Positions 38,585 to 53,119 are shown, counted from the first letter of the stretch. The stretch is 64,000 bases of DNA from Limnothrix sp. BL-A-16 (GCA_041937175.2 CP166615.1:3136001-3200000), one strand, 5' to 3'. The notes: generated from the letters alone by a model not told the origin. Numbers and translations are program-made.

Positions 38585-38674
38585 TCATTTCCTTAAATCA
38601 GCGGTATGACAAAGGCTACTAGCTCGATAGATAGCATCAAAAATATCGAAGAAATGGGCATCATCACGATTCAT
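38585..38674 (-). pseudogene. Truncated HepT/DUF86 (HEPN) toxin remnant
   Basis: ATG overlaps the end of the MNT gene; translates MNRDDAHFFDIFDAIYRA... (DUF86-like start) and stops after 29 aa. Confidence 0.6.
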
Positions 38675-38981
38675 AAATAATTACTGCGGTACTTAAAATT
38701 TCCTGGCGACGAATCCAGTTGCTACCTTCTTGAATCGCCTCTTTGATGACCAGATCAACAGGGCGATCGAGCAGATCTTCAAGTTGATGCTTGATTCTAA
38801 CGAGGGTCAATAATCCTTGAGGAGCATCGGGTGCGAAGGAAATCAACAGATCAATATCGCTATTTTCTCGAAAGTCTTCTCGCAAAACAGAACCAAAGAG
38901 GGCTAGTTCAGCAATTTTCCATTGCCGACAGACTTCGATCAGCTTCTCCTCAGGAATTGCAAGGCGATTTGTTGGAAACAT
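38664..38981 (-). CDS. Minimal nucleotidyltransferase (MntA-type antitoxin)
   Basis: LALFGSVLREDFRENSDIDLL, L..LLDRPVDLV. Confidence 0.93.
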   Translation of the reverse strand: MFPTNRLAIPEEKLIEVCRQWKIAELALFGSVLREDFRENSDIDLLISFAPDAPQGLLTLVRIKHQLEDLLDRPVDLVIKEAIQEGSNWIRRQEILSTAVIIYES

Positions 38982-38982
38982 C

Positions 38983-39549
38983 CTAACTAAAAATATCGGC
39001 GACTTTCAAGGTGAAATCAGCAAATAGGGGCGAGGTTAATTCGTCTTCGGCGAAGAGGGTGAAAACGAGTTCTAAACGGGCTTGCGATCGCCGATAGATC
39101 TCAACGGTTTGTTGTTGCCAATCCACGATCCAATATTCCCGCACCCCGACTCGGGAGTAGAGCTTGAGTTTCACTTGGCGATCGCGCGCAATGTCTTGGG
39201 GTGCTTGGGAAATCACCTCAACAACTAACTCAGGAGCCGCCGTGAAATGCCCCGCTTCATCAACGCAGCTTGCGGCTTTTTCATCGCTGATCCAAATCAA
39301 ATCGGGGATGACGTTTGCTTCTCCCGCAAAAATTAACCCCGGTGTTTGTAGGGCTTCTCCAGTGCGATTGTCTGAGTCTTGGGTGGGGAGCGATCGGCAG
39401 AGGCACGTTAATACTCGCTGGTGTTTCCAGTGGGGGGCGCGGGTCACGTATAGGTCTCCGTCGATGATTTCGTAGCGATCGCCGGTGTCGGGGAAGAGTG
39501 CTAAATCGGCGGTTGTCCACGGATTTTTCGGGTCAGCATTGGCAACCAT
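38983..39549 (-). CDS. Uma2 family (DUF820) endonuclease-fold protein
   Basis: RYEIIDGDL, PHWKHQ, VIPDL, APELVVEVIS, KLKLYSRVGVREYWIVD. Confidence 0.93.
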   Translation of the reverse strand: MVANADPKNPWTTADLALFPDTGDRYEIIDGDLYVTRAPHWKHQRVLTCLCRSLPTQDSDNRTGEALQTPGLIFAGEANVIPDLIWISDEKAASCVDEAGHFTAAPELVVEVISQAPQDIARDRQVKLKLYSRVGVREYWIVDWQQQTVEIYRRSQARLELVFTLFAEDELTSPLFADFTLKVADIFS

Positions 39550-39640
39550 GGGGGTTCACGCTGGGTAGGTAGCAGCGGTGCTGGGGCGTTATGTTGATTG
39601 TACTGACTGGGGCAGGGCGATCGTAGCGGGCATCGGTTTT

Positions 39641-39976
39641 CTAAGCTGCGCCGTAGTTGGTGTATTGGCGTTTGTAGGGTGGTTGGAGACCGAGAATAAT
39701 GTCTTCTCGGGGGACACCCATCGCGATTAATTCTTCGGCGGGATTTTGGTCGGTTAGGTTTTGTTGGAGCCAGATTTTGCCGTCTTTGATGTCGAAATGA
39801 ATGATGCAGTGATAGACGCGGTTGAACTCTTGCCAACCGACGTTCATCCATTGGTAATGGTCGCGATCGCTATCAAAGATCAATTGCACTTCGACGTTTT
39901 CTGCTACGGGATCATCTTGGGCATATTGGCTCAGTAGGGTTTGAATATATTGTCGGTATTGGGCTATTTTTTCCAT
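39641..39976 (-). CDS. xisI: XisI family protein
   Basis: QLIFDSDRDHYQW..VGW, HFDIKDGKIWLQQN.T...AEELIAMGVPREDIILG. Confidence 0.94.
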   Translation of the reverse strand: MEKIAQYRQYIQTLLSQYAQDDPVAENVEVQLIFDSDRDHYQWMNVGWQEFNRVYHCIIHFDIKDGKIWLQQNLTDQNPAEELIAMGVPREDIILGLQPPYKRQYTNYGAA

Positions 39977-40380
39977 TGGATGATCCTCTCCTGAGCTGGA
40001 TCGTAAACAACAATTGAGACTTGATACCGCTCTACGGCTGCCTGAGTGAATTCGTATTGAAAAAATGTTTGGTAAGAATCAACTGGAACGGCTAGATAGA
40101 GGGTTCGTTCTGGTTCGATCGATTCTAGGGCAAGGCGATAGCTGAGGAATTGGCCGAGAGCAGCATAGAAGTCTGTGACGGCGGAAGGGTTCAGAAAGCT
40201 TTTGATTTCGACGGCGATTTTTTCACCGGATCGTTCTGCGGCGAGTAGTCGTTCTGCGGCGAGATCAACGCGAAAGTTAACATTGCCAAATTTGAATCTG
40301 AGGGGATCATCAGTAATCACCCATTGTTCTTTTTCTAGGGCGTGTTTAACGGCTTCGTGGAACAGATCTTTGGCAGCCAT
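39964..40380 (-). CDS. xisH: XisH family protein
   Basis: MAAKDLFHEAVK.AL, DLAAERLLAAER, IAVEIKSF, ALGQFLSY, RTLYLAVP; overlaps xisI. Confidence 0.95.
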   Translation of the reverse strand: MAAKDLFHEAVKHALEKEQWVITDDPLRFKFGNVNFRVDLAAERLLAAERSGEKIAVEIKSFLNPSAVTDFYAALGQFLSYRLALESIEPERTLYLAVPVDSYQTFFQYEFTQAAVERYQVSIVVYDPAQERIIQWKK

Positions 40381-40540
40381 AGACGTTGGGCAGAGTTACC
40401 GAATTTTAGCATTCCGATCCGGCTGCGTCTGGGTTTGAGGCAGGGCGATCGCTTGCTCCGGTTGGCGGTTAGCTAAAATGGTGGGGAGCTAGTTTAGCGC
40501 TGTCGAGGTTGGGGATACATTCACGGGTTGGAGGTTGTCG

Positions 40541-40783
40541 ATGCAAATCACGATTACTTTGCCGCCGGATTTGGAGGGATATTTGCTGCGTCAGGCGGCT
40601 CAGACTGACCTTCCTTTGCCGTTGATTGTGCTACAGATTCTTCGGCAACTGATCCAGATGCCACCGGGTGTTACGACTCAGTGGCCGGAGGCTGTTTTGA
40701 ATTATGAGCCAGATCCCGATTTCCCTGAGTTTGAGTCCTATCGTAATGAGTTGATTGATCCCCAAGAAATAGAGTTATTTTGA
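40541..40783 (+). CDS. Putative antitoxin of the downstream PIN toxin
   Basis: Small ORF MQITITLPPDLE... with acidic C-terminus, stop overlapping the vapC start. Confidence 0.75.
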   Translation: MQITITLPPDLEGYLLRQAAQTDLPLPLIVLQILRQLIQMPPGVTTQWPEAVLNYEPDPDFPEFESYRNELIDPQEIELF

Positions 40784-41190
40784 TGCGCTATCTTTTGGAT
40801 ACTTGCGTCATCAGTGACTTTGTTAAGGGTGATGCACCAACAATAATTCGGTTTCGGAATACGCCCCCGACGGATATTGCAATTTCGGCAATTACGGTGA
40901 TGGAGTTACGTTATGGTTTGGCGATTAATCCACAACGCGCAGGGAAGGTTGAACCAATAATTTCTGACATTCTGGCATCTGTAACCATATTGCCATTTGG
41001 ACTGGCTGAAGCGGAAAGATCGGCTGAGGTTCGGGCTATTTTGAAATCACAGGGTCAACCGATCGGGGCTTATGATGTGTTGATTGCGGCGACGGCGCTT
41101 GCACATCAATTAATTATGGTGACTGCTAATCAGCGAGAGTTCGAGCGAGTTCCTGGGCTATCGATTGAAAATTGGCGACAGGCAGATTAG
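40783..41190 (+). CDS. vapC: VapC/PIN-domain toxin
   Basis: YLLDTCVIS, ISAITVMEL.YG, GQPIGAYDVLIAATAL, VTANQREFERVPGL. Confidence 0.95.
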   Translation: MRYLLDTCVISDFVKGDAPTIIRFRNTPPTDIAISAITVMELRYGLAINPQRAGKVEPIISDILASVTILPFGLAEAERSAEVRAILKSQGQPIGAYDVLIAATALAHQLIMVTANQREFERVPGLSIENWRQAD

Positions 41191-41316: not shown

Positions 41317-44300
41317 ATGGACGAGCAACGACTTCAGGCTTATTTGCAATTGATTCAGCAGTTGTTGGCTTGTCCGGCGGGGGAAGAGGAAAGCGTTTTG
41401 CAAGCCCAGGTGGAGTTGGTGGATGCGGGGCTGGTGGAGGTGATGGGACAGGTAGCTGACCTAATGGTGGAAAAAGGAGACAACAACGCCGGCCGATTGC
41501 GACAGTTTTCTGAGCAGGTGGCGCAGGCGTTGGGGCTGGAGTCAGCGACGGCGAGTGGTGCGGAGGATATGGATCAGTTTGTGGGGGAGGTGATGGAGCA
41601 GATTCTCCAAACCCAAGGCAATCCAGCGCAGGTTTATGGGTTTTGGCAGGTCGATTTAAATCGATTTAACGAAGCATTTTTGGCAACGCTGCCTATCACT
41701 TTTCGCCGCTTGATCGGGCAAAATGACCCCAAACTAATTGCGGCTATCTTTGCTAGGTTTGGAAACTTGATTCAACAATTTCCAATCGGTTCGCATTGGT
41801 TGAATCTGGAATGTGCAATTACGGTCTACGAACAGGCGCTGATGATCTACACCTGCGAAGCGCTTCTCGAAGATTGGGCCATGACCCAAAACAACCTGGC
41901 AACTGCTTACAGCAATCGAATCCGAGGGGAGAAGGCGGACAACCTAGAACTAGCGATCACCGCCTACAAACGGGCGCTGGAAGTCCTCACCCGCGATGCT
42001 TGTCCTGAAAATTGGGCAGGGACTCAAAACAATCTGGCCAATGCTTACAGCAATCGAATTCGAGGGGAGCGGGCGGACAACCTAGAACTAGCAATCACCG
42101 CCTACAAACGGGCGCTGGAAGTCTACACCCGCGATACTTTTCCTGAAAATTGGGCCATGACTCAAAACAACCTGGGAGAAGCTTACCGCTCTCGAATCCG
42201 AGGGGAGAAGGCGGACAACCTAGAACTAGCGATCACCGCCTACAAACGGGCACTGGAAGTCAGAACTCGCGATGCTTTTCCCAAAGATTGGGCAGGGACT
42301 CAAAACAATCTAGCCAATGGTTACGGTGCTCGAATCCGAGGGGAACGGGCGGACAACTTAGAACTAGCGATCACCGCTTACAAACGAGCGCTGGAAGTCT
42401 ACACCCGCGATACTTTTCCTGAAAATTGGGCCATGACCCAAAACAACTTAGCAACTGCCTACAGCAATCGAATCTGCGGGGAACGGGCGGATAACCTAGA
42501 ACTAGCGATCACCGCTTACAAACGAGCGCTGGAAGTCCGTACCCGCGAGGCGTTTCCTGAAGCTTGGGCAGCGACCCAAAACAACCTGGCAAATGCTTAC
42601 AGCGATCGCATCAGAGGAGAACGGGCGCACAACCTAGAACAAGCGATCACCGCTTACGAACGGGCGCTGGAAGTCTACACCCGCAATGCTTTTCCCGAAA
42701 ATTGGGCCATGACCCAAAACAACCTGGGAGAAGCTTATCGCGATCGCATCCGAGGGGAGCGGGCAGACAACCTGGAGCGAGCAATCATCGCTTGCGAACG
42801 GGCGCTGGAAGTCTATGCCCGCGATACTTTTCCACAAAATTGGGCCATGACCCAAAACAACTTAGCAACTGCCTACAGCAATCGAATCTGCGGGGAGCGG
42901 GCGGACAACCTAGAACTAGCGATCACTGCCTACAAACGGGCGCTGGAAATCTACACCCGCAATGCTTTTCCACAAGATTGGGCAGGGACTCAAAATAACC
43001 TGGCAAATGCTTACGTCGCTCGTATCCAAGGGGAACGGGCAGATAACCTGGAGCAGTCGATCGCCGCCTACAAACGGGCGCTGGAAGTCTACACCCATGA
43101 TGCTTTTCCTGAACAATGGGCAATGACCCAAAACAACCTGGCAAATACTTACAGCCAGAGAATTCGAGGGGAACGGGCGGACAACCCGGAACGGGCGATC
43201 ACTGCTTACGAACAGGCGCTGGAAGTCCGCACCCGCGAGGCGTTTCCCGAAGATTGGGCAGCGACCCAAAACAACCTAGCAATTGCTTACCGCGATCGCA
43301 TCCGAGGGGAACGGGCGGATAACCTCGAACAAGCGATCGCTGCCTACGAACGGGCGCTGGAAGTCTTCACCCGCGAGGCCTTTCCGAATGACTGTCGCCG
43401 TACTTCTCGATCGCTCGGCGATCTTCAAAGCGAGTTGCAAAACTGGGATGCTGCGACCCAAGCCTATGGGCAAGCCCTCGCCGCTGCGGAAGATCTCTAC
43501 CAAGCCTGCACCCTGCTCGACAGCCAAGCCGGTGAGCTAAAAGCAACCGCCAACCTGCCCCGCCGCGCCGCCTATGCCTACGCCAAAGCCAGTCAACTCG
43601 CCACAGCCCTCGAAACGATCGAACGGGGCCGCGCCCGGGGCCTCAGCGAACGACTCCAACGCGATCGCGCTGACCTCGCACAACTCCAACAACAGCGCCC
43701 TGACCTGTTCGATCGCTACCGCGACATCACCAACCAACTGCAAAACCTGGAAAGCCAACAACGCGACCAGCAAGTCCGCGATCGCCAAGCCATCACCCCC
43801 GAACAACACCGCAACGAAGCCCAAAGACTCCGCCAGGAATTGACCGAGGCGATCGCCCAAATTCGCCAAGTCCCCGGCTATGAAACCTTCCTGCAAGCAC
43901 CCAGCCTCACCGAAATTCAACAAAACCTCAGCACCGAAGCACCCACCGTCTACCTGATCCCCACCCCCAACGGCAGCCTCGCCCTAATCGCCACGCCCCA
44001 GGCGATCGCCCCCCTGTGGCTCGATGATTTCCCCGAAGCCACCCTCACCGACTTGGTGCAAACCTGGCTCCAGGCTGACAGAGAGTCCAAAGTGGCTAAC
44101 TATGAGTACAGTAAAGACCCGGAATCACTAGCCAAGATGCAGACCCGAAATGAAAAGCGGGAGCAGTGGCACAACGCGATCGACCAGGGAACCCGCCAAC
44201 TGTGGGACAACCTAATGGCTCCCCTAATCGATCGGCTCAAACAACACAACCACACCCAAGCGATCCTGATTCCCACCGGCTTGCTCGGATTGTTGCCCCT

Positions 44301-45099
44301 CCATGCCGCCTGGACAGAAGACCCCAGCCGCCCCACCGGCCGCCGCTACGCCCTCGATGAGCTGACCTTCACCTACGCCCCCAACGCCCAATCCCTCGTG
44401 GCCGCCCGGGCGGTGGCGGATGCCTTGCGGAGCAATATCGCCCAACAATTCCCCGACAGCCACCTCGATTCGATCCTGGCGATCGACAATCCCCGCCAAG
44501 ACCTGCCCAGCTCCGAACGGGAAGTCACGGCCGCCGTCAAAACCTTCCCCCACCCCACCGTCCTGCGCCACGAAAAAGCCACCACCGCAACCGTTGCCGA
44601 CAACCTGGGTCAACAGGCGATCGTCCATTTCTCCTGCCACGGAACCGCCAACTTCAACGAACCCCTCAACAGCGGCCTGCTAATGAGCGATGACCTGTTG
44701 ACCCTGCGCGAGCTATTTAACCTCAAGCTCACCGAAGGCAACAAACGCGGCATCCGGCTCGCCGTCCTCTCCGCCTGCGAAACGGGACTCCCCGGCCTGG
44801 ACTTAGCCGACGAGGCGATCGGCTTGCCCGTCGGACTGTTGCAAGCAGGCGTGGCCGGGGCGATCGCCTCGCTCTGGGCCGTGAGCGACCTCAGCACCAT
44901 GATTCTGCTCACCAAGTTCTACGACCTCTGGCGCAACGATCGCCTCACCCCACCCGCAGCCCTCCGCCAAGCCCAACAATGGCTCCGCAACGCGACCCTT
45001 TCCGAAATTCGCCAGCTCACCGGCATCAGTTTCCGAGGCGCTGAACACCCATTTGCCCACCCCTACTACTGGGCAGGCTTCAGCTACACCGGCATATAA
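41317..45099 (+). CDS. TPR-CHAT (caspase-like C14 clan) protease
   Basis: N-terminal MDEQRLQAYLQLIQQLLACP domain; eleven 46-aa TPR-like repeats; CHAT with catalytic HFSCHG and LSACETG; ends HPYYWAGFSYTG. Confidence 0.95.
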   Translation: MDEQRLQAYLQLIQQLLACPAGEEESVLQAQVELVDAGLVEVMGQVADLMVEKGDNNAGRLRQFSEQVAQALGLESATASGAEDMDQFVGEVMEQILQTQGNPAQVYGFWQVDLNRFNEAFLATLPITFRRLIGQNDPKLIAAIFARFGNLIQQFPIGSHWLNLECAITVYEQALMIYTCEALLEDWAMTQNNLATAYSNRIRGEKADNLELAITAYKRALEVLTRDACPENWAGTQNNLANAYSNRIRGERADNLELAITAYKRALEVYTRDTFPENWAMTQNNLGEAYRSRIRGEKADNLELAITAYKRALEVRTRDAFPKDWAGTQNNLANGYGARIRGERADNLELAITAYKRALEVYTRDTFPENWAMTQNNLATAYSNRICGERADNLELAITAYKRALEVRTREAFPEAWAATQNNLANAYSDRIRGERAHNLEQAITAYERALEVYTRNAFPENWAMTQNNLGEAYRDRIRGERADNLERAIIACERALEVYARDTFPQNWAMTQNNLATAYSNRICGERADNLELAITAYKRALEIYTRNAFPQDWAGTQNNLANAYVARIQGERADNLEQSIAAYKRALEVYTHDAFPEQWAMTQNNLANTYSQRIRGERADNPERAITAYEQALEVRTREAFPEDWAATQNNLAIAYRDRIRGERADNLEQAIAAYERALEVFTREAFPNDCRRTSRSLGDLQSELQNWDAATQAYGQALAAAEDLYQACTLLDSQAGELKATANLPRRAAYAYAKASQLATALETIERGRARGLSERLQRDRADLAQLQQQRPDLFDRYRDITNQLQNLESQQRDQQVRDRQAITPEQHRNEAQRLRQELTEAIAQIRQVPGYETFLQAPSLTEIQQNLSTEAPTVYLIPTPNGSLALIATPQAIAPLWLDDFPEATLTDLVQTWLQADRESKVANYEYSKDPESLAKMQTRNEKREQWHNAIDQGTRQLWDNLMAPLIDRLKQHNHTQAILIPTGLLGLLPLHAAWTEDPSRPTGRRYALDELTFTYAPNAQSLVAARAVADALRSNIAQQFPDSHLDSILAIDNPRQDLPSSEREVTAAVKTFPHPTVLRHEKATTATVADNLGQQAIVHFSCHGTANFNEPLNSGLLMSDDLLTLRELFNLKLTEGNKRGIRLAVLSACETGLPGLDLADEAIGLPVGLLQAGVAGAIASLWAVSDLSTMILLTKFYDLWRNDRLTPPAALRQAQQWLRNATLSEIRQLTGISFRGAEHPFAHPYYWAGFSYTGI
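41875..43392 (+). repeat. 11 x 138-bp intragenic tandem repeat (TPR array)
   Basis: TGGGC...AC(C/T)CAAAA(C/T)AA motif recurs every 138 bp from 41875 to 43255. Confidence 0.92.
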
Positions 45100-45126
45100 T
45101 CAAATCAACCAACTTGCCATCTCAGA

Positions 45127-45396
45127 ATGCCAGTTCTGTCAATGTTTTATGGGCTAATTGTTTCCATGTACTTCATGGATAACAAAGAGCACAAACGCCC
45201 ACACATCCATATTTCCTATCAAGGCAAAGAAGCGGTTTTCAGTATTCCAGAGGGCGAAGTTCTATCGGGCAGCTTACCTCGAAAACAAACTCGACTAGCA
45301 CAAGCATGGATTGAAATTCATGCAGATGAACTGGTCGCAAACTGGGAGCTGGCGATCGCTGGTCAACCACTTTACAAAATTGAACCACTGAAATAA
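45127..45396 (+). CDS. DUF4160 family protein (putative HicA-like toxin)
   Basis: MPVLSMFYGLIVSMYF, EHKRPHIH, GSLP, AWIEIHADELVANW, KIEPLK. Confidence 0.92.
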   Translation: MPVLSMFYGLIVSMYFMDNKEHKRPHIHISYQGKEAVFSIPEGEVLSGSLPRKQTRLAQAWIEIHADELVANWELAIAGQPLYKIEPLK

Positions 45397-45662
45397 TGAT
45401 GAATCCTAGGGTTGTCCATGTACTTGCGCGTGATCACTACAAACTTGAAATCCAGTTCACCAATCAAGAAGTGCGAATTTATGACTGCTCAACACTTTTA
45501 GATTTTGGCGTATTTCAAGAACTCAGAGACGAAACTTACTTCCGGAAAGTCAAGGTATTTAACGGCACAGTTACTTGGCCAAATGAGCAAGATATTTGCC
45601 CAGATACGCTCTATCTAGACTCTATCCCTTTACCGATTGCAGCCCAACCGTTGTCAGCATGA
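45396..45662 (+). CDS. DUF2442 family protein (putative antitoxin partner of DUF4160)
   Basis: YKLEIQFTN.E.RIYD, GVFQELRD..YF, TVTWPNEQDICPDTLY; coupled to DUF4160. Confidence 0.92.
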   Translation: MMNPRVVHVLARDHYKLEIQFTNQEVRIYDCSTLLDFGVFQELRDETYFRKVKVFNGTVTWPNEQDICPDTLYLDSIPLPIAAQPLSA

Positions 45663-46093
45663 ACACCACCTACGATCGCGATTTCTATGCTTGGACACAG
45701 GAGCAAATTGTGCTGCTGCAAAACCGAGATTTCGGGGCGATCGACCTCCCCAACTTAATCGAAGAACTCGCCGCCATGGGTCGCCAAGAACGTGAACAAC
45801 TTGTTAACCGTTTAGGTGTATTGATTGGTCATCTATTGAAATGGCGCTATCAGCCTGATATGCGAACCAACTCCTGGATCGGTACAATTCGCGAACAGCG
45901 GCGACGGATTCAGCGCTTACTCAAAAATAATCCAAGCTTGCAGCCATTTCTAGATGAAGCCTTCCGCGAAGCATATCTTGATGGGCGAGATCTGGCTATT
46001 CAAGATACTAACCTAGAGGATTCAGTCTTTCCAAAGGCTTCACCATTTACGCTGGAATTTGTCCTTTCGGACAATTTAGAGGAATCAATCTAA
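45659..46093 (+). CDS. DUF29 family protein
   Basis: YDRDFYAWTQEQ, IDLPNLIEEL..MG, HLLKW.YQP, SW..TI.EQR, NPSLQP; ATGA overlap with DUF2442. Confidence 0.93.
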   Translation: MNTTYDRDFYAWTQEQIVLLQNRDFGAIDLPNLIEELAAMGRQEREQLVNRLGVLIGHLLKWRYQPDMRTNSWIGTIREQRRRIQRLLKNNPSLQPFLDEAFREAYLDGRDLAIQDTNLEDSVFPKASPFTLEFVLSDNLEESI

Positions 46094-46137
46094 TTATCGA
46101 AATCACCTTTAAAGGCTCCCTCTTTCCAAACTACTCC

Positions 46138-46593
46138 ATGCTCTACACCGACGAAGATCTACTTGAAGCTGCTCGCACCATTCGCAGCGAATTGCCAGAT
46201 TTGTTGGATTCCGAAACCGCACAAAGCCTAGACGATCGCCTTGCTGAACTACTAAATCAAGTCCCCTTAGATTTGCGCGATCTACATTACGAAACCATCA
46301 GCGAGATCGCCACTCAAGTCGAAGAGTCTTTAAAAACACACGAGTCCACAAAGACTTGGCTAAAATCTTTTCTGATTGATTCATCCAATCACCAATGCCA
46401 AAGTTTTGAACCTCTTCCCGGTAATGCCAGTTACGTGGCAACCGATAAATATATTTGTCCCCACGGCGACTATCGCTGGTCTCGGCGCAGCATTGGCCAA
46501 CCGATTCCCCGCTGTCCAACCCATGATGTGCTCCTAATCCCGATCGCCGAATTTCAGCAGTTACGGTCTAGCTCATCGCAGGAGAACCCATGA
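46138..46593 (+). CDS. Hypothetical protein: helical N-domain plus C-terminal Cys/His Zn-ribbon-like motif
   Basis: LLEAARTIR...LDDRLAELL; FEPLPG; CPHGDYRW...PIPRCPTH. Confidence 0.8.
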   Translation: MLYTDEDLLEAARTIRSELPDLLDSETAQSLDDRLAELLNQVPLDLRDLHYETISEIATQVEESLKTHESTKTWLKSFLIDSSNHQCQSFEPLPGNASYVATDKYICPHGDYRWSRRSIGQPIPRCPTHDVLLIPIAEFQQLRSSSSQENP

Positions 46594-47519
46594 CTGCCAA
46601 GGTGCTCGAAGGTGCAGGCGGCAAGGTTGCAGAACAGTGGATTTCGAGTCTGCTGACTTCTGCCATTGTCTTTTGGGCTGGGGGCTTGGTGGCGGTTATT
46701 CAGCGATTTGGCTGGCAACCCTTCACGGACTGGTTCACCAAACAGCCGGAGCCATTACAGTTGGCTTTGTTGGTCGCTGTATTGGGTGGAGCGATCGCCT
46801 CAGCCGCCGTTGTTGAGCGATTTCAACTAATGGCTTTACGCGGTCTAGAGGGCTATTGGCATCCTATCTTTAATGGCTTGAAAGCTCGATTAATTCGTCA
46901 GCAGATCAAGAATAAAGGAAAGCTTGAAGCACAGTTTCAAGACTTAGATAACCGCCCAAGACGCACCAGTCGCGATCGCCAATTACGCATCAAGCTCGAT
47001 CGCCAACTCAGTGATTTTCCCACCCAAGATATTGATATTATGCCCACGCCATTGGGAAATATCTTGCGGGCAGCGGAGTTACGATCGCTCGATAAATATG
47101 GGCTGGATGCGGTGATTTGTTGGCCGCGATTGTGGTTGTTATTACCCGAGTCTGCCAAAGCAGATTTACAGGCAGCGCGGGCCGAGCTGAACGCGATGGC
47201 TCGGCTGTGGATCTGGAGTTGGCTATTTTTGGTTTGGGTATTCTGGGCTTGGTGGGCAGCCCCGATCGCCATTATTTCGGCGTGCTTTGCCTATCACTGG
47301 GCGATCGCGGCGGCCAAAACCTATGGCGACTTGATCGAAGCCAGTTTTGATCTTTATCGTGGCTTGCTCTACGAGGCTTTGCGATTACCCTTTCCGAAGC
47401 AAGCAGACCAAGAACCAGCCGCCGGACGGATGTTAACTCAATATCTTTGGCGCGGTACTTTGCCAGAGTCCTACAAATTCATTGCAACTTCAGAAGTTTC
47501 TCCAGTCACTGATCAGTAG
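46590..47519 (+). CDS. Hypothetical multi-TM membrane protein
   Basis: Two N-terminal TMs, LEGYW, soluble PTPLGNILRAAE..YGLDAVICWPRLWLLLP domain, two C-terminal TMs; ATGA-coupled to the upstream gene. Confidence 0.85.
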   Translation: MTAKVLEGAGGKVAEQWISSLLTSAIVFWAGGLVAVIQRFGWQPFTDWFTKQPEPLQLALLVAVLGGAIASAAVVERFQLMALRGLEGYWHPIFNGLKARLIRQQIKNKGKLEAQFQDLDNRPRRTSRDRQLRIKLDRQLSDFPTQDIDIMPTPLGNILRAAELRSLDKYGLDAVICWPRLWLLLPESAKADLQAARAELNAMARLWIWSWLFLVWVFWAWWAAPIAIISACFAYHWAIAAAKTYGDLIEASFDLYRGLLYEALRLPFPKQADQEPAAGRMLTQYLWRGTLPESYKFIATSEVSPVTDQ

Positions 47520-50519: not shown

Positions 50520-51017
50520 ATGTTTGACCAAAACGAGTTAGCCAATCTTGAGAAAAATATCAAGCGCCTTAAGCAGCAGTTAGCGGGCAAACGCGACACC
50601 CTGGTCACGATCGCTTCAGACGAAAAAGTACGGATTCGGCAGCAAATTGAAGATCTACGCTCCGAGATCAACGGCTTGGAGCGGGAATATTGGGAACTGC
50701 TGCATCAGCGATCGATCAGCTTTGAGCCGTCGGAGGATGAAGCTGAACCGATCGTGGCGGAATGGGTTGAGAAAGCCAATCAGTTAGAGACGAATCCGCC
50801 CGCCAACGTGCCTGCTGAGATTTTGCAGCAGGTGCAGGCGGTGGCCAAACGGTTGGATCAGCCGGGTCAATCGGCTGCGATCAAGGTGAAGGGGATGATT
50901 TCGGCGTTGCCACCATTTTTCTCGGTGGGCATTGAGACCGAATTGGATGTGGCGGGATTTGTAAAAGGCAATTTCCCCACTTTTTGGAACTGGGCGGCGG
51001 CACTCGCAAAAAAGTAG
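50520..51017 (+). CDS. 165-aa helical/coiled-coil protein; likely N-terminal module of a frameshifted NLR-like fusion
   Basis: ATG after GAGGAG; ends GCA AAA AAG TAG. Confidence 0.85.
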   Translation: MFDQNELANLEKNIKRLKQQLAGKRDTLVTIASDEKVRIRQQIEDLRSEINGLEREYWELLHQRSISFEPSEDEAEPIVAEWVEKANQLETNPPANVPAEILQQVQAVAKRLDQPGQSAAIKVKGMISALPPFFSVGIETELDVAGFVKGNFPTFWNWAAALAKK

Positions 51018-53119
51018 ATGGCCCGGTTCCAACGCCGGGCCAAGAACCGCCGACAAATTTGCAGGATCGGGGGGTCGATCGCGATCGCTTCTTTGGACGC
51101 GATGACGTATTGCAGGATTTGCACGATCGGTTGGGGCGATCGGATCGGGTGGCGGTGACGAGTGTGGCGGGCATGGGCGGCGTGGGCAAAAGTGAGCTGG
51201 CGGTGCAGTATGCGCGGTGGCGGCTGCGGGAGGGGGACTATCGCGGCGGGGTGGTGTGGCTGGCGGGGGAACGGGCGGGGATTGAGCTATTGGGGTTTGC
51301 GAAGGCGCAGTTTTTCCCGGATGTGGATTTGGCGCAGTTAGGCGATTTACGCGAACAGTTGACGTTTATTTGGTCGCGTTGGCCGGTGCCTGAGGTTCCG
51401 CCGGAGTCGGTGCTGTTGGTGTTTGATGATGTGACGGATTACCGATCGCAGGTGGCGGATCTGTTGCCGAGTGACAAGCGGTTTCGGGCGATCGTCACGA
51501 CGCGGGAGCAGATCCAGGGGATCGATCGGTTGGATTTGGCGGTGCTGGCTCCGGCGGCTGCGTTGGACTTGTTGCGATCAATCGTTGGGGAAGCGCGGAT
51601 CGCGGCGGAACCGGAGACGGCGAGCGAGATCTGTGAATGGCTGGGCTTTTTGCCGTTGGGTTTGGAGTTGGTGGGCTATTATCTCCAGCGCAAGCCGAAT
51701 CTGTCGCTGGCAAAGCTGCTGGAACGGTTGAATGAGAAGCGTTTGGCGGCGAGGGCGTTAATCGATGTGCCGGTGACGCTGACGGCACAGCGGGGGGTCG
51801 CGGCGGCGTTTGAGTTGAGTTGGGAGGCGATCGGCGCGCAGGAGTGGGGCGAGTCGGCGCAGGCGTTGGCGATGCGGCTGAGTCTGTTTGCGGCGGCTCC
51901 GATTCCGTGGGGCTTGATGCAGGACTGTTGGGCGGCGGCGGATGAGGAGGAGTTGGAGGATTGGCGCGATGGGTTAGTGGCGTTGCATCTGATTGAGGAT
52001 GTCACCGGGGAGCGCTATCGGTTGCATCCGCTGATTCGGGAGTTTTTTGCAGCGAAGTTGGCGGCGCGGGCGGAGGCGACAGCCTGGCGGACGGCGTTTG
52101 CGGTGACGTTGACGAAGATTGCGAGAACAATTCCGCAGACTGTGACGCTGGAACAGCAAGCCCAGGTGCGCGAGGCAATGCCCCATCTGGAAGCCGCGAC
52201 GGATTATTGCGACCTACTGAGCGATGATGATTGCGGCTGGCCGTTCACTGGTTTAGCCCGGTTTTACGAAGCCCAAGGCCTGTTCGAGGATGCCGAGCGT
52301 TGCTCTCAGCATTGCCTCGATATGCGCGAAACCCGCTTCGGAGCCGACCACCCTGATACCGCCACCAGCCTCAACAATTTGGCGGCATTGTATGAATCGC
52401 AAGGGAAATACGATCGCGCCGAACCGCTCTACCAACGCGCCTTAGACATCAGAGAACAGCAACTGGGAGCCGACCCCCCCGCTACCGCCACCAGCCTCAA
52501 CAATTTGGCGGGATTGTACCGATCACAAGGGAAATACGATCACGCCGAACCGCTCTTGCAACGCGCCTTAGCGATCAGGGAACGGCAACTGGGAGCCGAC
52601 CACCCCCATACCGCCAGCAGCCTCAACAATTTGGCGCTTTTGTATAAATCGCAAGGGAAATACGATCGCGCCGAACCGCTCTACCAACGCGCCTTAGCGA
52701 TCTATGAACGGCAACTGGGAGCCGACCACCCCAATACCGCCAGCAGCCTCAACAATTTGGCGCTTTTGTATAAATCGCAAGGGAAATACGATCGCGCCGA
52801 ACCGCTCTACCAAAGCGCCTTAGACATCAGAGAACGGCAACTGGGAGCCGACCACCCCGATACCGCCGCCAGCCTCAACAATTTGGCGGTGCTGTATTTC
52901 TATCAAAATCGCTGGGGCGAGGCGGAGCGGTTGCTGGTGCGGGCGCTGCTGATTTGGGCGCAGGTGTTGGGCGAAGCGCATCCCGACACGCAAAGCTCGA
53001 TTCAAAGCTTGTTCAGCCTAATCGGTGCAGCCCTGAACCAGGGACGCGCCGCCGAACTCTCCGACCACCCCGTCACCCAATCCATCCTGCAACAACTCAC
53101 CACCCCACCCAACCCGTAG
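50984..53119 (+). CDS. STAND NTPase (NB-ARC-like) with TPR repeats, in the -1 frame relative to 50520-51017
   Basis: FFGRDD, Walker A GMGGVGKSE, Walker B LLVFDDV, IVTTR, LGFLPLGL, LHPLIREF, then 42-aa kinesin-light-chain-type TPRs; only a TTG at 50984 as an independent start. Confidence 0.9.
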   Translation: MELGGGTRKKVDGPVPTPGQEPPTNLQDRGVDRDRFFGRDDVLQDLHDRLGRSDRVAVTSVAGMGGVGKSELAVQYARWRLREGDYRGGVVWLAGERAGIELLGFAKAQFFPDVDLAQLGDLREQLTFIWSRWPVPEVPPESVLLVFDDVTDYRSQVADLLPSDKRFRAIVTTREQIQGIDRLDLAVLAPAAALDLLRSIVGEARIAAEPETASEICEWLGFLPLGLELVGYYLQRKPNLSLAKLLERLNEKRLAARALIDVPVTLTAQRGVAAAFELSWEAIGAQEWGESAQALAMRLSLFAAAPIPWGLMQDCWAAADEEELEDWRDGLVALHLIEDVTGERYRLHPLIREFFAAKLAARAEATAWRTAFAVTLTKIARTIPQTVTLEQQAQVREAMPHLEAATDYCDLLSDDDCGWPFTGLARFYEAQGLFEDAERCSQHCLDMRETRFGADHPDTATSLNNLAALYESQGKYDRAEPLYQRALDIREQQLGADPPATATSLNNLAGLYRSQGKYDHAEPLLQRALAIRERQLGADHPHTASSLNNLALLYKSQGKYDRAEPLYQRALAIYERQLGADHPNTASSLNNLALLYKSQGKYDRAEPLYQSALDIRERQLGADHPDTAASLNNLAVLYFYQNRWGEAERLLVRALLIWAQVLGEAHPDTQSSIQSLFSLIGAALNQGRAAELSDHPVTQSILQQLTTPPNP
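51008..51042 (+). promoter_or_regulatory. Putative programmed -1 ribosomal frameshift signal
   Basis: In-frame A AAA AAG (51008-51014), then 4 nt, then stem TGGCCCGG (51019-51026) / CCGGGCCA (51035-51042) with an 8-nt loop. Confidence 0.8.
52349..52978 (+). repeat. 126-bp intragenic TPR repeats (4 near-identical plus 1 diverged)
   Basis: GGAGCCGAC...AGCCTCAACAATTTGGCG recurs every 126 bp. Confidence 0.9.

Follow-up and report, generated by a model that had tools for sequence, protein, structure and literature searches.

A conserved gene pair for a knuckle protein and a membrane protein beside a TPR-CHAT protease gene in Limnothrix: probably a new protease-triggered cell-suicide or immunity module

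The locus and its three conserved products

Six open reading frames, all on the + strand, fill positions 41317-47519 of a stretch of 64,000 nucleotides from the genome of Limnothrix sp. BL-A-16 (GCA_041937175.2 CP166615.1:3136001-3200000; this whole stretch is called the window here, and all positions are counted within it). The first of them (41317..45099) encodes a sensor-protease of 1260 amino acids with Pfam matches to CHAT and to TPR_12/TPR_10. The last two encode a protein of 151 amino acids (p151, 46138..46593), which is a candidate substrate or adaptor of the protease to judge by its conservation at related loci, its alignment and its structural model, and a protein of 309 amino acids (p309, 46590..47519), a candidate membrane effector or anchor according to hydropathy, charge and model. 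The two genes overlap by an ATGA at the junction CCCATGACTG. Three small genes of generic families (DUF4160, DUF2442 and DUF29) lie between the protease gene and the pair and are treated in the last section. A preliminary description of the window, made from its sequence, had suggested that the protease cleaves the small protein and so releases or activates the membrane protein; the intact protease with its TPR array, the ATGA-coupled pair on the same strand and the generic genes in between are all found where that description placed them. No terminator-like site was found on the + strand within the locus, and the matches of the promoter and terminator scan did not exceed the expectation from shuffled sequence and are uninformative. 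Three metatranscriptome-labelled runs contain short contigs from close relatives that cover parts of the CHAT and p309 genes, although such contigs cannot prove transcription or co-transcription.

The protease begins with a domain of about 150 residues (41317-41766) that belongs to no Pfam family, is kept in 25 linked CHAT proteins, and has a consensus that starts with MDEQRxQAYxxLIEQLLxCPxGEE. It has no hydrophobic N-terminus and is accordingly taken to be a cytoplasmic protein. The TPR array that follows (about 41826-43385, delimited with Tandem Repeats Finder) is presumed to be a ligand-binding sensor, and consists of 11.3 tandem copies of a 138-nucleotide unit, or 46 amino acids (80% matches, score 1828), with a median pairwise identity between units of 76% for amino acids and 82% for nucleotides. 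The variation is clustered at few positions; highly similar repeats that differ in this way are typical of the reshuffling sensor arrays of NLR-type proteins. A helical middle region separates the array from the CHAT domain (about 44194-45087), which matches PF12770 at residues 960-1257 with 185.2 bits against a cut-off of 24 (E 2.3e-54). It contains HFSCHG at residues 1104-1109 and SACETG at 1152-1157. H1108 and C1154, which I take to be the catalytic pair by analogy with caspases, are conserved in at least 95% of 40 aligned linked CHAT domains, and the dipeptides H1108-G1109 and A1153-C1154 are both present. The idea that the N-terminal domain and p151 meet as homotypic adaptors was rejected, with an hhalign probability of 0.8% between the two.

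No match to p151 was found among the families of Pfam, NCBIfam, PADLOC or PHROG, and 59 members scanned singly gave no consistent Pfam family and no helix-turn-helix family. Its AlphaFold2 model (predicted local distance difference test score, pLDDT, 70) shows a four-helix bundle (residues 5-85) that a linker modelled with low confidence (85-101) connects to a small beta ribbon (104-131). Alignment of the 59 sequences shows [KR]-[GS]-[YF]-x-x-L-[PA]-G as a shared linker motif, with per-position counts of 51, 54, 52, 51, 51 and 58; in the window it occupies residues 88-95 (46399-46422), and ends in the LPG of residues 93-95 (L93 in 51 of 59, G95 in 58). Behind it, C107 and C126 are invariant, and H129 is, like G95, near-invariant. 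The C-terminal part (residues 104-131, 46447-46530) is a Cys/His knuckle and a putative zinc-binding module, whose second knuckle has the form C-x2-H in 55 of 59 members and whose first is more variable: C-x2-C in 18, C-x-H in 8 (CPHG in the window), and three obvious ligands in the remainder. The family is acidic, with a median isoelectric point of 4.9 for the whole protein and 4.4 for the helical bundle; a DNA-binding regulator is not favoured for such a protein without a helix-turn-helix family among its 59 members. Fold searches gave a best Foldseek E of 0.65, and a profile search of PDB sequences gave E values of 0.022 or higher only. A search aimed at longer fused forms of p151 found none, which is weak evidence, and two apparent p151-p309 fusions (P0203, P0231) were set aside, as their second knuckle is garbled and their GC content high, so that they are maybe read-through gene calls.

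Likewise, p309 has no match in Pfam, NCBIfam, PADLOC or PHROG, and 22 members scanned singly gave no consistent Pfam family. Its hydrophobic segments, at about residues 17-40, 54-78, 206-222 and 226-243, form two hairpins (about 17-78 and 206-243), between which lies a basic helical domain of some 130 residues with 22 lysines and arginines. By the positive-inside rule this domain and both termini are predicted to be cytoplasmic. The AlphaFold2 model is all-helical (pLDDT 82.6), with low confidence in the first 20 or so residues, which are highly conserved; 59 columns are invariant in the alignment of 22 sequences. Structural relatives were sought without success: the best Foldseek match in the PDB had E 0.78, the profile search of PDB sequences returned 0 matches, and the best VIA-wide Z was 6.6 over 63 residues, which is below the noise level for helical proteins. 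Searches of the ESM Atlas with both proteins returned only unnamed clusters. Their predicted complex scored 0.28 against a mark of 0.32, which counts neither for nor against binding. The helical domain, exposed linker and Cys/His motif that the preliminary description had noticed in p151, and the several membrane passes it had noticed in p309, reappear in these models and alignments.

Linkage of the pair to clan-CD proteases

Relatives of p309 are numerous. A word-based search found 1172 proteins, and an exhaustive profile search found 6129, 4001 and 667 representatives of 50% clusters at E <= 1e-3, 1e-10 and 1e-30, respectively; the closest ones are from Limnothrix, at 93% (Limnothrix sp.) and 71% identity (L. 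redekei). A scan of one genome per species returned 267 relatives, of which the best 80 loci were kept. In 78 of these a p151 homologue lies directly upstream of p309; of the two exceptions one has a flank of only 232 nucleotides (L075), and in the other none was detected (L044). In the usual layout a CHAT gene is followed after a gap of 30-60 nucleotides by p151, and this after about 8 nucleotides, or with an overlap, by p309. The CHAT gene is upstream on the same strand in 50 loci, a caspase (Peptidase_C14) gene is downstream in 15 (with nSTAND1 in 6), a caspase-nSTAND1 gene is upstream in 3 (L015, L021, L079), and in 1 only nSTAND1 is seen upstream, in an nSTAND1-WD40 gene truncated by the contig end (L072); 2 loci have none of these within informative flanks, and in 9 the flanks are too short, informative flanks being at least 2 kb upstream and 1.5 kb downstream. 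Profiles built from six Pfam-verified sequences underlie the numbers for caspase and nSTAND1. Thus, a clan-CD sensor-protease gene adjoins the pair in 69 of 71 informative loci (TPR-CHAT in 50, caspase-STAND in 19). By comparison, the downstream flanks, 435 kb in all, contain only 2 CHAT matches, and the host genome of 4.56 Mb has 16 CHAT genes, or about 1 per 285 kb, and one p309. Homologues of the two downstream genes are hence enriched beside such proteases, as the preliminary description had expected for CHAT.

The CHAT domains at these loci form a group of their own. Compared with that of the window, linked CHAT domains from other genera show 44-85% identity (median 56%) and at least 239 bits, whereas the paralogues within the same genome reach at most 36% identity and 87 bits, so that this is a dedicated lineage of CHAT proteins accompanying the pair. 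A quick maximum-likelihood search with IQ-TREE on 76 p309 sequences (five loci without a clean p309 open reading frame call, L014, L043, L062, L066 and L068, were left out of the tree and kept in the profile tallies) separates two clades. One of them includes the window and has 42 rows, 40 of which are linked to CHAT (Shimodaira-Hasegawa-like approximate likelihood ratio test, SH-aLRT, 92); its sister has 25 rows, of which 19 are linked to caspase-STAND and 0 to CHAT (SH-aLRT 94). In four genomes both clades are represented, by one locus each. Both clades retain the linker motif of p151 and its ligand residues.

Downstream of most pairs of the sister clade, and in the same orientation, lies a very large gene. 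Pfam finds Peptidase_C14 with nSTAND1 in the large genes of L012 and L016, with pentapeptide repeats in addition in L154, nSTAND1 with WD40 in L032, L055, L059 and the second large gene of L057, and NA-iREase1 with WD40 in L024, L027, L030 and the first large gene of L057. The caspase profile, from the six Pfam-verified domains, matches the N-termini of all cyanobacterial large genes at 1e-86 to 1e-115. The three-component system that the preliminary description proposed stands as a conserved unit of genes, but that description missed this sister clade, in which a caspase-STAND-WD40 protein takes the place of CHAT. In two of the loci with an upstream caspase-nSTAND1 gene (Alkalinema; L015, 5777-7603, and L021, 2987-4873) a gene for an SLH-domain protein of about 610-630 amino acids lies between that gene and the pair.

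The linkage is found in other phyla and in metagenomes as well. Two loci are from Competibacteraceae (L010, L026), and the ESM Atlas contains close clusters of p151 and p309 in Actinomycetota. Plasmids of Rhodococcus opacus and Streptomyces goshikiensis carry the trio in the order p151, p309, CHAT, to which one extra gene is added in Streptomyces; all these genes are annotated as 'hypothetical protein' or 'CHAT domain-containing protein', and the Rhodococcus CHAT protein has TPR_10 and TPR-S repeats. A metagenome scan seeded with high-GC members gave 291 relatives, of which 80 were kept (GC 0.41-0.73). Where at least 450 nucleotides were available upstream, p151 was present in 54 of 57 loci. 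Flanks were too short in 41 loci, and the 39 informative ones have CHAT upstream in 26, CHAT downstream in 2 and caspase-nSTAND1 downstream in 2. The linkage thus spans three gene orders and at least three phyla, and the trio is a conserved, real and widespread unit with a near-obligate linkage of the pair to clan-CD sensor-proteases.

Its distribution is sporadic and prone to decay. Many carriers are filamentous cyanobacteria; among 401 sampled genomes of the phylum p309 occurs in 11 (9 of 156 genera), p151 in 9 and the adjacent pair in 8. Three genomes also have copies that are broken by stops or split, and in one (G264) p151 stands beside a remnant of 147 amino acids. Five large plasmids hold p309, plasmids of Nostoc, Rhodococcus and Streptomyces being among the carriers, and no p309 relative was found on viral contigs. 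In L133 (6392-11331) the genes hsdR, for a type I restriction R subunit, and DUF2193 on one side and the methylase gene hsdM on the other enclose a p309 homologue for which no p151 was detected, and another homologue adjoins a PglZ gene (L121).

The variants of p151 show which of its parts are constant. In L107 a single uninterrupted frame encodes CHAT (residues 7-239), TIR_2 (381-487), the linker as YERLAG and the knuckle (616-665), in L110 TIR_2 is followed by YEPLGG and the knuckle, and in L161 the knuckle comes after an HC2-like region of low complexity. In L064, where CHAT, p151 and p309 are all present, the gene directly 5' of CHAT (1323-2780) encodes a protein of 486 amino acids that combines a p151-type helical bundle (residues 95-175) with DUF7363, and may be a second client of the CHAT protease. 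In G038 (L163, 2740-4056, - strand) a Peptidase_C14 protein of 438 amino acids ends in a p151-type knuckle; the next gene (426-2777, - strand) encodes an EAD10-NACHT-NCH2 STAND protein, and p309 is absent. It follows from these variants that linker and knuckle are constant and that the N-terminal slot is exchangeable. The knuckle keeps to clan-CD proteases, and its occurrence in G038 makes it a wider caspase-associated module. As p151 is modular, it may carry or release an output domain, and not simply inhibit p309.

Interpretation and alternatives

Bacteria, and especially cyanobacteria and actinobacteria, encode many caspase-like proteases fused to NLR-type sensors, and natural substrates are known for very few of these proteases, namely gasdermins, Csx30 and PatU3. 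The trio is probably a new protease-triggered cell-suicide or immunity module. More specifically, I would give an even chance to the reading that the locus is a three-component caspase-type conflict module, of the abortive-infection or programmed-death kind, with a protease-gated membrane effector and with an operon interrupted by a cassette. In this scheme the TPR array would bind a trigger, upon which the C-terminal His/Cys protease would turn active and act on p151-p309. The likeliest cut would be in the conserved flexible linker of p151, a candidate substrate in that it places a conserved linear motif within a region of low model confidence, and the cut would separate the N-terminal domain from the Cys/His knuckle. 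As a consequence p309 would be released or activated, the membrane barrier damaged and the cell brought to a stop. In the sister version an NLR- or Apaf-1-like caspase-STAND-WD40 protein would serve the same pair, the WD40 array detecting the trigger. The patchy occurrence of p309, the broken copies, the toxin-antitoxin-type cassettes, the TIR variants and the hsdR-hsdM and PglZ neighbours together suggest the signature of a conflict system.

The nearest precedent is that of the bacterial gasdermins, which are reported to be flanked by CHAT in 23 cases and C14 in 15, some with TPR, LRR, WD40 or NACHT, and whose cleavage relieves inhibition and leads to membrane damage, the CHAT protease of Runella cutting after a P1 leucine in a flexible loop of about 12 amino acids (Johnson et al., 10.1101/2021.06.07.447441). 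As in those operons, as far as they are described there, the gene of a candidate effector stands beside a CHAT or C14 protease with repeat or NTPase sensors. However, the partner is here a set of two proteins, the four-helix membrane protein p309 and the knuckle protein p151, with no match in sequence or fold, as against the one soluble beta-rich protein with an inhibitory peptide in cis that is described for gasdermin systems. Membership among these was rejected, since no gasdermin-fold protein is present, p151 and p309 belong to no Pfam family, and the p309 model is all-helical.

In the type III-E Craspase, the TPR-CHAT protease Csx29 cleaves the neighbour-encoded Csx30 in a linker and so releases its output, to which a TPR-CHAT protease encoded beside a candidate linker-bearing substrate would be analogous. 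The locus is not a Craspase: the protease reaches 44.3 bits against a cut-off of 300 for the Csx29 equivalog NF041237, p151 and p309 match no Csx30 or Csx31 model of NCBIfam, and no Cas or gRAMP gene is among the neighbours (VapBC, XisH/XisI, Uma2, MNT, DUF3108-like, NB-ARC-TPR), where CRISPR arrays were not searched for. In type II toxin-antitoxin pairs, the antitoxin is degraded by housekeeping proteases, which frees the toxin. By analogy, p151 may be likened to an antitoxin as a small acidic upstream protein, ATGA-coupled to a potentially toxic partner, but here a dedicated protease is co-encoded and p151 has no DNA-binding domain.

Cyanobacterial caspase-STAND-WD40 proteins were recently presented as 'bacterial Apaf-1 orthologues', and the available text names no substrate or partner for them (Nature 2026, PMC13581612). 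The neighbours of the sister clade share with them the architecture of Peptidase_C14, STAND NTPase and WD40, whereas the protease of the window is a TPR-CHAT without NTPase. Kaur et al. 2020 (PMC7159879, section 33) describe EACC1, a small protein with a single transmembrane segment encoded 5' of a caspase gene, among the conflict systems found in multicellular bacteria. As in the present case, a protein of the caspase superfamily is coupled there to a membrane component that stays constant. Membership there was rejected too, as p309 has four hydrophobic helices and neither p151 nor p309 matches a Pfam family at E <= 0.01. In TIR-caspase immunity a TIR-made signal is reported to activate a caspase-like protease (10.1101/2024.10.24.620036); L107 and L110 join TIR with CHAT in one module in a similar manner, but the window has no TIR, and in the variants it fills the N-terminal slot of p151. 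In the text available from Kaur et al. 2020 (PMC7159879), Kaur et al. 2021 (PMC8195603) and Asplund-Samuelsson et al. 2012 (PMC3501461) a p151-p309-protease module is not described. Full-text searches likewise yielded no account of a Cys/His-knuckle protein that, together with a four-helix membrane protein, is linked to CHAT or caspase-STAND genes, though supplementary neighbourhood tables might list the genes unnamed. With no match to p151 or p309 in Pfam, NCBIfam or PADLOC either, the view that the combination corresponds to no named system holds up.

Several observations weigh against a protease-gated membrane effector. A cut after L93 would put proline or alanine at P1', which many proteases disfavour, and the linker motif could equally be a docking peptide or a part of the knuckle fold. 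In G038 the knuckle is fused to a caspase in the absence of p309, so that the knuckle need not be the part that binds p309. By the structure and PDB profile searches, p309 is unlike any known pore-former or holin, and PADLOC-DB v2 has no match at E <= 0.01 for the CHAT protein, p151, p309 or the three small proteins. In 2 informative loci from genomes and 9 from metagenomes no protease adjoins the pair, among the latter L157, which has a convergent CHAT gene. In the window itself the CHAT gene and p151-p309 are 1 kb apart, with a cassette between them. Finally, the small number of sequences behind the caspase and nSTAND1 profiles limits those counts, and the p309 tree is a quick one, not a finished careful tree.

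What the pair does can be read in several ways. I hold it as a tentative possibility, at somewhat less than even chances, that p151-p309 is a gasdermin-independent executioner module in bacterial immunity of the caspase type, in which p309 is silenced by, or tethers, a knuckle protein that is the dedicated substrate of both caspase-STAND-WD40 and TPR-CHAT proteases, so that one cut in the linker would lead to membrane failure and, in the TIR variants, also to the release of TIR. Alternatively, the signal may run in the opposite direction, with p309 as a membrane sensor for envelope damage or phage entry, p151 as an adaptor that docks its linker on the TPR or WD40 array and so switches the protease on, and the protease as the effector, which would break down proteins of the cell or of a phage. 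Peptides are known ligands of TPR and WD40 arrays, and p151 offers a conserved linear motif in a flexible linker, with a knuckle that is found fused to a caspase (G038) and to CHAT-TIR (L107), as would be expected of a regulatory module of proteases. A membrane sensor that activates a caspase is also the logic proposed for EACC1 systems (Kaur et al. 2020, PMC7159879), and the protease of the TIR-caspase system is reported to degrade proteins indiscriminately once active (10.1101/2024.10.24.620036). However, highly similar TPR units that vary at few positions suit variable foreign ligands better than one partner motif, the pair serves two unrelated repeat types that would both need to recognise the docking site, and nearly all of the non-membrane mass of p309 is predicted to be cytoplasmic, which leaves little to sense outside; I therefore regard this reversal as rather unlikely.

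An improbable third reading takes the N-terminal domain of p151 as the output, tethered by p309 through the knuckle until a cut in the linker frees the bundle or TIR as an effector or signal. This would follow the logic of Csx29-Csx30 in Craspase and of protease-released sigma factors, and agrees with the exchange of bundle, TIR (L107, L110) and HC2-like region (L161) before a constant linker and knuckle, and with the recurrence of the bundle alone with DUF7363 in L064. Yet the bundle is acidic, matches no Pfam family and shows no signature of an enzyme or of DNA binding, TIR variants make up only 2 of 160 loci, both from similar metagenome sources, and the strong conservation of p309, with its many invariant columns, suggests more than a passive anchor. 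That the trio is not a conflict system at all, and serves in housekeeping or developmental proteolysis like HetF-PatU3 or as a regulator/anti-regulator pair, appears very improbable. It would suit the many filamentous carriers, and HetF is reported to be a CHAT protease with a specific substrate, PatU3, in Anabaena, but a regulatory role sits badly with the patchy occurrence with pseudogenised copies, the presence on large plasmids of Nostoc, Rhodococcus and Streptomyces, the TIR variants and NLR-like partners, and an acidic p151 in which no helix-turn-helix was detected.

If the executioner reading is true, the natural substrates so far missing for the abundant caspase homologues of cyanobacteria and actinobacteria would be identified, and the step from apoptosome to executioner would have its counterpart in bacteria. 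Whatever its mechanism, two large unannotated families are tied almost obligatorily to two classes of sensor-protease, which gives a concrete three-gene system for studying the targets of these proteases and the route by which a proteolytic signal arrives at the membrane, and the module may add a new type of effector to the catalogue of defence systems.

Inserted cassettes and neighbouring genes

The three small genes between protease and pair are a DUF4160 gene of the DhiT-like toxin family (45127..45396, +; Pfam E 4.8e-25, PHROG 14333), a DUF2442 gene (45396..45662, +; Pfam E 2e-11, PHROG matches) and a DUF29 gene (45659..46093, +; Pfam E 3.8e-49, PHROG 11797). The DUF4160 protein scores 91.3 bits with the NCBIfam model toxin_DhiT, under its cut-off of 100. 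The start of DUF2442 overlaps the stop of DUF4160 (TAATG), and DUF29 likely begins at the ATG of position 45659, where it overlaps DUF2442 by an ATGA; a longer open reading frame begins at 45596, in which the Pfam match starts at residue 26. Among the 80 related loci DUF4160 and DUF2442 occur in 0, and DUF29 in 1, elsewhere in the locus. Because these genes are lacking in related loci, while other cassettes occupy the same junctions, they are regarded as an insertion outside the system, in agreement with the earlier suggestion that they arrived later. Unlike p151 and p309, all three match phage-borne PHROGs.

Gaps of more than 300 nucleotides at the CHAT/p151 or p151/p309 junction occur in 15 loci. 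Seven of these contain Uma2, between p151 and p309 in L002, L005, L011, L018 and L029 and on the opposite strand in L049 and L064; other cassettes are MNT-HepT (L009, L040), PIN (L020) and Phd-PIN (L025). L100 has Phd-PIN as well. Both operon junctions are thus repeatedly occupied by cassettes of a toxin-antitoxin or selfish type, some of which split an otherwise overlapping p151/p309, and these recurrent insertions bear on how selfish modules settle in such loci. In a contig of a close relative with a metatranscriptomic label, which is probably DNA and of low depth (X1), the end of CHAT is joined to the inside of DUF2442 by 43 other letters, skipping the 335 nucleotides that hold DUF4160 (window 45100-45436), which hints that the cassette differs between close strains.

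Directly 5' of the protease gene, at 38664-41190, lies a run of small genes of mobile or toxin-antitoxin type, for an MNT-like nucleotidyltransferase, Uma2, XisI, XisH, a product of 82 amino acids and a VapC-like PIN protein, which lends the region an island-like character. On the other side, at 50520-53119, a gene for a helical protein of 165 amino acids with a weak match to EAD9 overlaps the gene for an NB-ARC-TPR STAND protein, which is a second NLR-like gene at most 3 kb from the CHAT module.

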